From Bacteroidales bacterium (GTDB taxonomy: Bacteria; Bacteroidota; Bacteroidia; Bacteroidales; VadinHA17), in assembly GCA_041303415.1 (NCBI GenBank), contig JBFYPG010000100.1:3825-67824 (forward strand): DNA of 64,000 bases. Reading direction: 5' to 3'. Below the pieces are notes generated by a model, which did not search any database, had not been told where the DNA came from, and saw only the letters and a program-made list of their open reading frames with translations. Each line of letters begins with the position of its first letter. Position 1 is the stretch's first letter. The translations under genes and the position numbers were made by a program. Positions 38,707 to 42,235 of the stretch are shown in pieces.

Positions 38707-39480
38707 TTATTTCCGGTTCCGGATATAAATATGCTTGATATGGTTCTGCCCTGAGTCACGTTCGTCGATCTCAAAATCGAACGATTTTATCAGCGGAGTC
38801 AGCTTCGCAAACCCGAAGTTCCTGGGATCGAAATCAGGCTGTTTCTTGAGAATCAGGTTGCCAACATCCCCCAGGTATGCCCATCCGTTCTCATCGGCGA
38901 GGTCAGTAATTGATGATGCTATAAGCCTCTTTGCCTTGTTTACCTGAAACTGCTTATCACTCTCCGCACTTTTCTGTTTCACGTGAACAGGCTTACCTCT
39001 CTTTTTCCTGTCAGGAGCCTGATCCTGCCCTGATGCCGGTGAATTTATGATCTCTATATAGATGAATTTATCGCATGCGGTAATGAAAGGCGAAGGGGTT
39101 TTCCTTTCGCCGATTCCAATGACTTTCATGCCTGCTTCCCTGAGCCTTGTCGCCAGCCTGGTGAAGTCGCTGTCACTCGATACAAGGCAGAAACCGTCAA
39201 CTTTTCCCGAATAAAGAATATCCATGGCATCAATTATCATCGCCGAATCCGTTGCATTCTTTCCCCGCGTATAGCTGTACTGCTGAACGGGGGTTATTGC
39301 ATTCTCGAGCAATACCGGTTTCCATCCTGAGACAGTCGGCTTTGTCCAGTCTCCATATATTCGCTTGAAGGTTGGTGTGCCATATTTTGCTATCTCCTCG
39401 AGCATACCCTTGACGTTGCTGAAAGGAATATTGTCAGCATCGATCAGAACGGCAAGTCTCAAATCCTGTAGTGTTTGCAT
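38707..39480 (-). CDS. NYN-domain (PIN-like RNase) protein with C-terminal OST-HTH/LOTUS domain
   Basis: Trimmed to ATG 39480. LAVLIDADNIP..RIYGDW..FCLVSSDSDFTRLATRLREAGMKVIGIG is the NYN/LabA pattern. The C-terminal ~70 aa (GWAYLGDVGNLILKKQPDFDPRNFGFAKL) look OST-HTH-like. Confidence 0.7.
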   Translation of the reverse strand: MQTLQDLRLAVLIDADNIPFSNVKGMLEEIAKYGTPTFKRIYGDWTKPTVSGWKPVLLENAITPVQQYSYTRGKNATDSAMIIDAMDILYSGKVDGFCLVSSDSDFTRLATRLREAGMKVIGIGERKTPSPFITACDKFIYIEIINSPASGQDQAPDRKKRGKPVHVKQKSAESDKQFQVNKAKRLIASSITDLADENGWAYLGDVGNLILKKQPDFDPRNFGFAKLTPLIKSFDFEIDERDSGQNHIKHIYIRNRK

Positions 39481-39518
39481 AAAACTCAATTTTGCCGAAA
39501 GGTACGATAATTAATTAA

Positions 39519-39549
39519 GTTGCTTGTTGCTTGTTGCTAGTTGCTTGTT
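39519..39549 (-). repeat. Heptamer array, AACAAGC-type units as read on the minus strand
   Basis: The plus strand reads GTTGCTTGTTGCTTGTTGCTAGTTGCTTGTT. It sits 38 nt upstream of the NYN-protein ATG (39480). Confidence 0.9.
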
Positions 39550-39563
39550 AATACAAAGACTCA

Positions 39564-39593
39564 AAATCTGAAATCTGAAATCGGAAATCCGAA
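39564..39593. repeat. Heptamer array AAATCTG/AAATCGG/AAATCCG, about 4 units
   Basis: Read directly in the NYN/THX divergent intergenic region. Confidence 0.85.
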
Positions 39594-39661
39594 TTAAAAA
39601 TAACCCACCCCCAGATCAGGTGTAATACTTCAGAATAATAGTAACAATTTTTTAATGTAAC

Positions 39662-39738
39662 AACCCCCTTTCTTATTTCCCCCAAGGGGGAAAGGATTAA
39701 AAGCTCCTGCCCCCTTGGGGGAAGGATGGGAAGGGGGT
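39662..39738 (+). repeat. G5/C5 double-hairpin element, copy C (77 nt)
   Basis: AACCCCCTTTCTTATTTCCCCCAAGGGGGAAAGGATTAAAAGCTCCTGCCCCCTTGGGGGAAGGATGGGAAGGGGGT. Lies in the divergent NYN/THX region. Confidence 0.9.
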
Positions 39739-39831
39739 CATATGAATAGAAAATAAATGAAATCAAAGCTGTTTAAAAAGAATCAATTTGTTACTAAAAT
39801 TATGAAGAAATACACAGGGAGGGGAGACAGT

Positions 39832-39863
39832 AGCAAGCAACCAGCAACCAGGAACCAGCAACC
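39832..39863 (+). repeat. Heptamer array, AACCAGC-type units
   Basis: AGCAAGCAACCAGCAACCAGGAACCAGCAACC is the inverted complement of 39519-39549 and lies upstream of the THX promoter. Confidence 0.9.
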
Positions 39864-39897
39864 TTCTCCACTGATATTTTACTATCCCGGTGCCTGG

Positions 39898-39930
39898 TTT
39901 GATTAATACTAAAGAATTTTTTTAACTTTG
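39898..39930 (+). promoter_or_regulatory. Bacteroidota-type promoter of the THX-fusion gene
   Basis: TTTG (39898-39901), 21 nt spacer, TAACTTTG (39923-39930). About 45 nt upstream of the ATG. Confidence 0.65.
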
Positions 39931-39975
39931 CGGGCGCAAAACAAGGAATTAATAAACCTGATAAAATAAAAGTAT

Positions 39976-40572
39976 ATGGGAAAAGGTGATAAAAAGTCAA
40001 GAAGGGGAAAGATAATTCTTGGAACATATGGCGTGAGACGCCCCAGGAAGAAAAAAAATAAACCTGCTGTCAAGCTTGTGACTCCTGCTCCTGCACTTGA
40101 ACTTAAGGAAAAGAAATTCATTAAGGAGAAGAAGGAGACAAAGCCTGTAAAAGAGGTTAAGGAAGTTGTTGAAGCAGCTGAGGTGAAGGAAGTCGCTGCT
40201 GCTCAGGAACCGAAGCATGCAAAGGAAGTTCATGAAGTGAAGGAGGTTAAAGAGCACAAGCCGGCCAGAGAAGAGAAACATGCAAAAGCTGCCACTTCTG
40301 CAAAGGAACCGAAAGAAGCAAAAGCTGAAAAACCCGCTAAGGAAGCCAAAAAGGAAAAGGTTGTGAAGGAAACCAAAAAAGCCCCGGCAGAAAAGAAAGA
40401 GGCCAGGCTTGCTAAAGCCGAAAAAGCTGAAAAGGAAGCCGTTAAAGAAGCAAAACCATCTGCACCAAAAAAACCAGCTGCATCAAAAAAACCAGCTGTA
40501 CCAAAAAAGCCTGCTGAGAAAAAGCCTGCTGTTAAAAAACCGTCAGCACCTAAGAAAGCCACAAAGAAATAG
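39976..40572 (+). CDS. 30S ribosomal protein THX (bTHX) fused to a ~170-aa K/E/A/P-rich histone-H1-like tail
   Basis: N-terminus MGKGDKKSRRGKIILGTYGVRRPRKKK matches the bTHX peptide. It is followed by KEVKEV-type and KKPA(A/V)(S/P)KK-type repeats up to the stop. A consensus promoter lies upstream (39898-39930). Confidence 0.65.
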   Translation: MGKGDKKSRRGKIILGTYGVRRPRKKKNKPAVKLVTPAPALELKEKKFIKEKKETKPVKEVKEVVEAAEVKEVAAAQEPKHAKEVHEVKEVKEHKPAREEKHAKAATSAKEPKEAKAEKPAKEAKKEKVVKETKKAPAEKKEARLAKAEKAEKEAVKEAKPSAPKKPAASKKPAVPKKPAEKKPAVKKPSAPKKATKK

Positions 40573-40573
40573 G

Positions 40574-40634
40574 CGATTTATGATATGCGATATGCGATTT
40601 CACAAGGATATCGCATATCGGATATCGCATATCG
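40574..40634. terminator. Long imperfect hairpin of GATATGC / GCATATC words between convergent genes
   Basis: ATATGCGAT-TTCACAAGG-ATCGCATAT forms a 9-bp core stem with further repeat-unit pairing. It lies between the THX-fusion stop (40572) and the ThDP-enzyme stop (40643). No clear U-tract. Confidence 0.5.
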
Positions 40635-40642
40635 GACATCTC

Positions 40643-42235
40643 CTATTGCTTCACCACAAGCCACTTATAATCCTCAGGATCGATCCTGGCATTTATTATC
40701 ACCGGCCCGCTCAATGCGATAGCCTGACTGACGGCTTTGCTCATGCTTTCACCGGAATCTGCGTAAAGCACCCTGCATCCCAGGAATCTATCGGCTCCGA
40801 AAAGATCGCCCTGGTATAATGCAGTGCCATATGGATTTATGTCATCCCACTCCTGCTTCAGCTTTATAAGGTTAAGCTCGCTATCCGACAAGACCACAAT
40901 TATGATGTGCAGATCATAGCGCCTGGCTGTAATGATTTCACCGGCATGCATGAGAAATCCGCCGTCACCCGTTATGCATGCAACAGTTGATCGCGGGCAG
41001 TTCATCTTTGCTGCCATTGCCGCAGGGAGGCCGAATCCCATCCCCGACCACCCGTTGGTCATAATGAGGGTGCCATGGTTTCCTGTTTCCCAGATCTGAC
41101 CTGCAAGATGGAGATGCGACCCTACATCAGCAGTGACGATAGAATCGTCAGGAAGTTCATTATGAAGCGTCCTCAGTGCAGTCACCGGTCCGAAATGATT
41201 CGTAAACCCATCGAAAACCGATGTCATTTCGTCCCTGATGCCCCGGATAATACCCTGTTCGAATATCAGGGAACCAGAATTAAGCCCTGAAAGAATCCTG
41301 AACCAGTCGTCGGGCTGCCCGGCAAACTGAAATACATTTTCCCTTTCAGGCAGATCTGTCCTGATTGAATTAAGATGGATCAGCGGCACATCAGGCATCC
41401 ATGATTCGTAATTGTATTCCACAGGGTCATATCCCAGACCTATTACAAGATCGGTCTTTTCATAAATATCTTCAAGATGATCGCTCAGCGCATGAAAAAG
41501 AACCCCTGTGTACGAAGGATGTGTCTCGGGTATTATGCCTTTGGCCATAGGTGTTATTACAACAGGCATCCTGTAAGTGTCGATAAAAGCCAGCAGTTTA
41601 TCTTTCAGTCCAAGACGTTTTGCAGTGAGCCCGACAGCAAGCAGGGGGCGCCGCGAACGGGCAAGCAGTGAAGAAATCTTTTCATCGTTGTTTTTATCCT
41701 GGGTATCTGCCTTCACCAGATCAGGCTCCCTGTTTTCTTCAATTTCCTTTTCGGCAATATCTGAAGGAAGACCGATATGGACCGGACCCGGATATTCTTC
41801 ACGGCATATCCTGAATGCTTTCTCCAGAACCCCGGCTGTATTGCCCGGATCAAGCCTGAATGTAGCTTTGGTCACCGGGGCAAAAAGCTTCTGATGATCG
41901 ATCTTCATCTGGGTCGTCCTTCCTGCCATAGCATCGCTTACCTCGCTCGTGAACACAATTACGGGTGATCTGTCAAGAAGAGCACCGCCCACACCGGTTA
42001 ATATATTAGTTGCACCAGGACCGAATGTCGCATGGCATACTCCGGTAACGCCTGTGAGCCTTGCCGTGACATCAGCCATGATCCCTGCCGAAGCTTCGTT
42101 CGCAGTGAGTATGAACTCAATACCGGCCTTCCTGAAAGCTTCCATATATGGAATGGAAGGACCTCCGGGTATGCCAAAGACAAACCTGACACCTTCTCTA
42201 ACCAGTTGACCTGCAATATATTCAGCAATCTTCAT
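40643..42235 (-). CDS. Thiamine-diphosphate enzyme of the acetolactate-synthase-like family (three-domain)
   Basis: Trimmed to ATG 42235 (MKIAEYIAGQL). GIPGG, GPGATN, ThDP motif GDGGFLMHAGEI..(N)..LSDSELN. Confidence 0.8.
   Translation of the reverse strand: MKIAEYIAGQLVREGVRFVFGIPGGPSIPYMEAFRKAGIEFILTANEASAGIMADVTARLTGVTGVCHATFGPGATNILTGVGGALLDRSPVIVFTSEVSDAMAGRTTQMKIDHQKLFAPVTKATFRLDPGNTAGVLEKAFRICREEYPGPVHIGLPSDIAEKEIEENREPDLVKADTQDKNNDEKISSLLARSRRPLLAVGLTAKRLGLKDKLLAFIDTYRMPVVITPMAKGIIPETHPSYTGVLFHALSDHLEDIYEKTDLVIGLGYDPVEYNYESWMPDVPLIHLNSIRTDLPERENVFQFAGQPDDWFRILSGLNSGSLIFEQGIIRGIRDEMTSVFDGFTNHFGPVTALRTLHNELPDDSIVTADVGSHLHLAGQIWETGNHGTLIMTNGWSGMGFGLPAAMAAKMNCPRSTVACITGDGGFLMHAGEIITARRYDLHIIIVVLSDSELNLIKLKQEWDDINPYGTALYQGDLFGADRFLGCRVLYADSGESMSKAVSQAIALSGPVIINARIDPEDYKWLVVKQ

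Follow-up and report, generated by a model that had tools for sequence, protein, structure and literature searches.

Sequence comparison identifies the gene at 39976-40572 as the single bTHX gene of this genome. It encodes a protein of the small ribosomal subunit whose short THX core runs in frame into a 171-residue tail. Coordinates refer to the window, which is the whole stretch of 64,000 nucleotides that was analyzed. The product has 198 aa (21.8 kDa, pI 10.1, net charge +35), and its tail is more than six times the size of its core (171 vs 27 residues). The substitution pattern of the tail DNA argues that the tail is translated and under purifying selection. We put at roughly 75% the probability that it is a ribosome-anchored, disordered polyelectrolyte tail on bTHX. 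The annotation that follows is simple: the gene is bTHX, a housekeeping gene of the rpsU class, and should be so named.

Identity of the bTHX gene and its locus

The THX peptide forms the extreme N-terminus of the ORF (MGKGD...) and carries the conserved G/K/R residues of the family. The ORF starts with MGKGDKKSRRGKIILGTYGVRRPRKKK at 39976, the same start as that quoted in the earlier note made from the letters of this DNA, and the continuation past the THX part without a stop that was described there is confirmed by an intact frame of 198 codons. The gene and its conserved core are as follows.

39976..40572, + strand: bTHX gene, 198 codons plus stop; ATG at 39976 and TAG at 40570-40572
39976..40056, + strand: THX core, residues 1-27; placed by Pfam and NCBIfam matches, Thermus alignment, and homologue conservation

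Residues 1-27 match the Pfam Thx model (PF17070) over all of its 27 positions with 35.4 bits (gathering score 29.7), and the NCBIfam model TIGR04560 (ribo_THX) is matched over positions 1-26 of 26 with 49.3 bits (cut-off 26). Thermus THX chains in the PDB align to the same residues with 20 of 27 identical (E 3e-5). Among 13 homologues, 18 core columns are invariant (M1, G2, K3, G4, D5, K7, R10, G11, K12, I13, L15, G16, G19, V20, R21, R22, R24, and K25). Because both curated models are matched and the Thermus chains align, the N-terminal similarity is not coincidental low complexity, one of the outcomes that would have refuted the reading in the earlier note. The length of 198 aa departs from the very small size of the type members (26-27 aa in Thermus, and 26-60 aa for most forms in a 2012 alignment), a size trait that is not part of the curated models. 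No solved THX chain from Bacteroidota was found in the PDB.

The source genome is a metagenome-assembled genome of 213 contigs that is 98.5% complete. Run against the whole genome (E <= 10), the THX model matched only the locus at 39976-40572, and no separate short THX copy was found. Twenty-three of the 24 congeners drawn have a THX match, with one match apiece. Since there is a single THX locus and its core is intact, the bTHX of this ribosome, if present at all, is the product of 39976-40572. A Pfam search with the whole protein (E <= 1) returned nothing except Thx, with no linker-histone or other DNA-binding domain. Beyond THX, NCBIfam gave a single sub-threshold match to ChePep (14 bits vs a 650-bit cut-off), which is compositional and reflects low complexity.

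The bTHX gene is monocistronic, divergent from an NYN/OST-HTH gene, and convergent with a gene for a TPP-dependent enzyme. Both neighbors recur: of about 90 related loci, 41 have the NYN/OST-HTH gene and 59 have the TPP-enzyme gene. Three noncoding features flank the gene.

39898..39930, + strand: Bacteroidetes-type promoter motif, predicted by pattern search; -33 TTTG at 39898-39901, 21-nt spacer, and -7 TAACTTTG at 39923-39930
39931..39975, + strand: A-rich leader without a Shine-Dalgarno sequence, read from the sequence; putative 5' UTR of about 39 nt, as placed from the -7 box
40581..40627, no strand assigned: strong hairpin where the convergent bTHX and TPP-enzyme genes meet; recognized by folding energy against shuffles and by tandem repeats

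The predicted promoter motif (TTTG-N21-TAACTTTG) ends 45 nt upstream of the ATG. The -33/-7 promoter described in the earlier note is present as a motif. Motifs of this type occur in the window at chance level (3 found, 2.1 expected), but in eight relatives the TAACTTT box is invariant and its spacing to the ATG is unchanged. A search of Rfam over 39450-40700 gave only chance-level miRNA-like matches, and no leader or regulatory RNA. Downstream of the gene, the 101-nt stretch 40560-40660, which holds the hairpin, has a minimum free energy of -34.2 kcal/mol (z -6.4 vs shuffles). The hairpin at 40581-40627 is a probable bidirectional terminator; no clear T-run lies 3' of it.

Some further details of the locus can be recorded. 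The hairpin arms are built of the 7-nt tandem repeats GATATGC and ATATCGC (40582-40640). The NYN and OST-HTH/LOTUS gene at 38707-39489 (- strand) is 80-88% identical in relatives, and it is far better conserved than the THX tail; its product is an RNA-binding or RNase-like protein. The 486-bp gap between this gene and bTHX contains a G/C-rich hairpin (39661-39740) with chance-level miRNA-like Rfam matches and a short run of AGCAACC/AGGAACC repeats (39835-39870).

Composition and coding signature of the tail

The tail consists of 30% K, 20% A, 17% E, 11% P, and 9% V, with a net charge of +24 and a single Phe as its only aromatic residue. It can be divided into four zones.

40057..40146, + strand: linker, residues 28-57, net +5; NKP..K and the basic motif KEKKFIKEKK, with conservation extending to E60
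40147..40296, + strand: charge-neutral K/E/V/A polyampholyte block, residues 58-107, net -1; defined by composition, with pLDDT <50 and no secondary structure
40297..40470, + strand: mildly basic K/E/A block, residues 108-165, net +8; defined by composition and the AlphaFold2 model
40471..40569, + strand: basic KKPA-type repeats, residues 166-198, net +12; defined by composition and 15/18-nt tandem DNA repeats

The last three zones agree with the charge-mixed K/E block and the subsequent basic KKPA block reported in the earlier note. Dominance of basic K/A/P sequence is confined to residues 166-198, and residues 58-165 contain 24 Glu and are near charge balance. Tandem Repeats Finder placed the 15/18-nt repeats at 40452-40516 and 40503-40539.

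The linker shows conservation at fixed positions. A comparison of 17 close homologues shows no variation at K47, K53, and E60 and almost none at K29, P30, and K33. Of 91 distinct homologues, 39 have a KEKKxxKEKK-type basic motif whose first residue falls at 39-45, compared with an expectation of 0.65 for shuffled tails. An AlphaFold2 model (17 sequences) has a mean pLDDT of 52 and a single helix (residues 9-14), and most positions between residue 60 and about residue 155 score below 50. This model is consistent with an intrinsically disordered tail. A search of the ESM Atlas with the tail alone returned only other THX-tail clusters, with scores of 0.82-0.84 that serve as leads only.

Nucleotide comparison indicates that the tail is read in the frame of the core. 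In alignments of 13 related pairs, all relatives being metagenome-assembled genomes, mismatches in the tail DNA at codon positions 1, 2, and 3 number 166, 204, and 433. Against the closest relative, a lake-sediment genome (L015), there are nine gaps, each of a length divisible by three. By the Nei-Gojobori method, the aligned codons of the tail give dN/dS values of 0.06-0.47, most of them 0.1-0.2. A single substitution would turn 84 of the 171 tail codons into a stop. Under neutral simulation, a median of 23-28 tail residues survives 0.25-0.5 substitutions per site, yet the 25 complete congeneric genes all have tails, 70-213 aa long. Composition of the congeneric tails is nearly constant (K 24-36%, E 14-23%), with net positive charge and a basic C-terminal end. 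The third-position excess, low dN/dS, in-frame gaps, and persistence of the tail despite near-stop codons lead us to conclude from these alignments that the tail is translated and under purifying selection. The three-fold variation in tail length within the genus indicates weak constraint on length. In the reading that we favor, tail length drifts by gain and loss of repeats, and selection keeps frame and composition.

Distribution of tailed bTHX and of similar tails on other translation proteins

Tailed THX proteins are the norm in the order Bacteroidales. THX open frames in the genus have a median of 131.5 aa and a maximum of 247 aa. For the order, 251 genomes with a completeness of 90% or more were sampled; here the THX frames have a median of 106 aa, 65 of 117 exceed 100 aa, and the longest reaches 275 aa; tail length varies from about 15 to 250 aa. 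In the remaining phylum the median is 47.5 aa, and only 2 of 58 frames exceed 100 aa. Nearly closed genomes are among those with THX frames above 100 aa. The earlier note suggested a search for orthologues with and without the tail, and many lineages proved to have short tails or no detectable THX. Shorter K/A/P/T tails are present in Flavobacteriaceae, Lentimicrobiaceae, and other groups. An exhaustive HMMER search with residues 1-60 yielded 311 representatives of 50%-identity clusters. The relatives are uncultured Bacteroidales metagenome-assembled genomes that, by their record titles, come from fens, peat, soils, lake sediment, and digesters.

The architecture had been described as unfamiliar in the earlier note, but tailed homologues are already named THX or S31 by NCBI and JGI, and the alignment of Yutin et al. 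(2012; PMC3353972 File S2) includes a Flavobacteriaceae THX of 97 aa on which no remark is made. The 198-aa bTHX lies near the long end of a common, already annotated architecture, and this instance is not exceptional. The THX tail as a phenomenon is unstudied in the literature: we came across no publication that treats the THX tails of bacteria, and THX is not mentioned in the paper on the F. johnsoniae 70S ribosome. A 2026 preprint states that the C-terminal extension of chloroplast bTHXc is "absent from bacteria" (bioRxiv 10.64898/2026.07.03.736309). Tailed bacterial bTHX genes contradict the claim that bacterial bTHX has no C-terminal extension.

In 135 of the 251 genomes of the order, TIGR04560 found no THX at E <= 0.001. 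Bacteroides thetaiotaomicron, which was included as a control, likewise had no TIGR04560 match at E <= 0.001. The missing matches reflect either loss of the gene or divergence beyond the model. The proportion of genomes without a match conflicts with a published statement that nearly all Bacteroidetes have Thx.

The bTHX tail is accompanied by similar sequences elsewhere in the translation apparatus. The whole source genome was screened for ORFs with K/E/A/P-rich 50-residue windows, and the seven most biased ORFs were bTHX, bL21, bL25, bL17, bS1, IF2, and one DUF5606/DUF6852 protein. The six ORFs other than bTHX, on other contigs of the genome, are listed here.

C98:7439-7960: bL21 (L110), K/E/A/P-rich low-complexity extension
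C12:6456-7166: bL25 (L111), K/E/A/P-rich low-complexity extension
C113:3637-4044: bL17 (L113), K/E/A/P-rich low-complexity extension
C116:18739-20853: bS1 (L114), K/E/A/P-rich low-complexity extension
C122:5659-8526: IF2 (L115), K/E/A/P-rich low-complexity extension
C53:19099-19623: DUF5606 and DUF6852 protein of 174 aa (L112), K/P/E-rich C-terminal tail

In bL21 (172 aa) the domain spans residues 2-102, in bL25 (235 aa) the domains end at residue 178, and in bS1 (704 aa) the K/E/A/P bias is in the N-terminal region. THX and bL21 open-frame lengths are correlated across the order (Spearman rho 0.44, n = 73, uncorrected for phylogeny, with bL21 lengths taken among the 150 of 247 matches listed). 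Among these same listed matches, bL21 has a median length of 136 aa in genomes with a THX frame above 100 aa, compared with 109 aa in genomes in which no THX was found. Even with these limits, the bTHX tail looks like one case of a lineage-wide trend on the translation apparatus and not like a special fusion.

A bolder interpretation is that the tails on bTHX, bL21, bL17, bL25, bS1, and IF2 form a co-evolving, selected polyelectrolyte corona. In this view the bTHX tail would extend outward at the top of the 30S head, and its length would be a tunable functional trait and not the product of drift. We regard this as speculative and rather unlikely. If it were true, such a corona could aid capture of A-rich mRNAs that lack Shine-Dalgarno sequences, or could control ribosome packing and hibernation. 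The DUF5606/DUF6852 protein is the only screened protein outside the known translation set; it could be an unrecognized ribosome-associated protein.

Lineage-specific low-complexity extensions of ribosomal proteins are familiar to specialists, and the wider point made here is modest but real. Selected tails are typical of a large uncultured order, and Bacteroidales ribosomes may therefore suit the study of disordered charged extensions.

Proposed role of the tail and alternative readings

The THX core binds 16S rRNA at h41/h42 in the 30S head (PMC5737520, PMC5694952). In Thermus thermophilus THX (e.g., PDB 1FJG chain V), the whole protein corresponds to residues 1-27 of the present product, which likewise span the whole family model and are 20/27 identical, and its binding site, the rRNA cavity at h41/h42 of the 30S head, would be shared by the present product. 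The Thermus protein ends at residue 26-27, whereas the product of 39976-40572 runs 171 residues further. Chloroplast bTHXc/PSRP4 (46-47 aa when mature) also combines a THX core with a C-terminal extension. From the rRNA pocket, that extension runs out to uS13c near bridge B1b (PMC5737520, PMC5694952), and contact with uS7c has been described in the 2026 preprint (bioRxiv 10.64898/2026.07.03.736309). It comprises about 20 residues that make hydrophobic contacts, whereas the tail here has 171 charged residues with almost no hydrophobic ones. Chloroplast bTHXc chains gave no PDB match at E <= 1, so that no homology to the plant type of extension was detected, and plant mitochondrial S31 matches in the core alone (residues 2-33, E 0.32).

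By homology with Thermus and chloroplast ribosomes, residues 1-27 would plug a cavity of the 16S rRNA (h41/h42) in the uppermost part of the 30S head. The clade-conserved basic linker (residues 28-60) would probably lie on the head surface. The tail may leave the head near uS13, as suggested by the course of the chloroplast extension towards uS13 near bridge B1b. Residues 61-198 would form a solvent-exposed disordered tail, in which a neutral polyampholyte grades into a polycationic KKPA end. The most likely action of such a tail would be generic electrostatics at the ribosome surface. Its basic end could bind rRNA or mRNA weakly and non-specifically, or the tail could serve as a charged brush that affects the solubility, spacing, or packing of ribosomes. 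A ribosome-tethered polyelectrolyte tail was the first of two alternatives offered in the earlier note, and it is the better supported, by a gene that is the only THX gene, an in-frame tail under selection, and predicted disorder.

Close counterparts of this design are found in other Bacteroidota. Tailed THX proteins at NCBI (100-240 aa) and in ESM Atlas clusters (137-180 aa) have the same core followed by a K-rich, low-complexity C-terminal tail, and those of Bacteroidales also have the linker motif, flanking genes, and promoter box in common with the present gene. They differ in their ends: KKPA repeats terminate the tail here, and KPKKEKK is the commoner terminus. Mycoplasma pneumoniae uL23 (PDB 7OOD chain s, 237 aa) similarly joins a conserved core to a long, charged, low-complexity C-terminal extension, and the tail aligns weakly to residues 101-233 of that extension (E 0.032). 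It is a different protein in the other subunit, and the likeness is compositional and not homologous.

Selection on the tail bears on the alternative that the tail is translated but functionless, a runaway low-complexity repeat expansion that is tolerated while only the THX core matters. Tail length varies from 70 to 213 aa in one genus and more widely across the order, the distal part is made of tandem DNA repeats, no fold is predicted, and many lineages have short tails or no detectable THX, all of which would be expected of such an expansion. Yet dN/dS is about 0.1-0.2 with an excess of third-position substitutions, and at least 70 aa of tail remain in 25 of 25 complete congeneric genes even though half of the codons are one step from a stop. 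Conservation of composition, of the basic C-terminal end, and of the position-fixed linker motif, together with the co-variation of THX and bL21 frame lengths, also argues against tolerance alone, and we consider a functionless tail unlikely.

The second alternative in the earlier note was a nucleoid protein that had borrowed the THX N-terminus. In a broader form, this would be a histone-H1/AlgP-like nucleoid or nucleic-acid-binding moonlighter, with THX reused as a basic N-terminus or as a link between ribosome and DNA. The KKPA-type repeats of the last 33 residues (166-198, net +12) do resemble the Lys-Ala-Pro repeats of the histone H1 C-terminal domain and of Pseudomonas AlgP, and the whole protein has a pI of 10.1. 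However, neither Pfam nor NCBIfam found a linker-histone domain (thus no H1 globular domain) or other DNA-binding domain, and four-fifths of the tail is E-rich and near charge balance, not polycationic. The invariant residues of the THX family are kept, and no other THX gene, short or otherwise, is available to the ribosome. The context is ribosomal in other respects as well, in that the nearest look-alikes of the tail are other THX tails and similar tails occur on five other translation proteins (bL21, bL25, bL17, bS1, and IF2). The borrowed N-terminus found no support, and we judge any nucleoid role of this kind very improbable.

The core/tail junction contains a homopolymer that could in principle alter the product.

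40051..40058, + strand: A8 homopolymer at the core/tail junction, read from the sequence; a TAA in the -1 frame comes after it

If this run (site AAGAAAAAAAATAAA) were longer by one A, a 28-aa product, the size of Thermus THX, would result. The coincidence of the site with the core/tail junction raises the idea of two products, in which slippage at A8, by RNA polymerase or as a -1 ribosomal shift, makes a 28-aa THX beside the long form. The same arrangement of A8 and hidden stop is found in the two closest relatives (L014 and L015), and 33 of 91 homologues combine an A-run of at least six with a short shifted product. A null model that varies synonymous codons and keeps the amino acids already yields 25.8 +/- 3.9, and the excess is marginal (P about 0.04, with relatedness ignored). 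The -1-frame stop by itself is not enriched in the 91 homologues (65 observed vs 68 expected), A-runs of 6-7 occur inside the tail as well, and many homologues have no A-run at the junction. A dual product is likewise very improbable. Least probable of all is an artefact, in which an assembly or homopolymer-length error at A8, exactly where a single base fuses or splits the frames, in a 213-contig metagenome-assembled genome hides a true gene that stops after about 28-40 codons; about 90 independent assemblies, whose junction sequences differ and in many cases lack A-runs, preserve one reading frame through core and tail, which argues against a homopolymer artefact, and the coding signature of the tail lies in the same frame as the core.

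In some homologues (L020, L085, L017, and protein P0012) the tail turns R/Q/N/L-rich near its end, e.g., ...KKLQRKRRALNRKKQLRRRRP. These ends resemble the K/E tail read in another frame and probably represent homopolymer errors or real frameshifts in A-runs.
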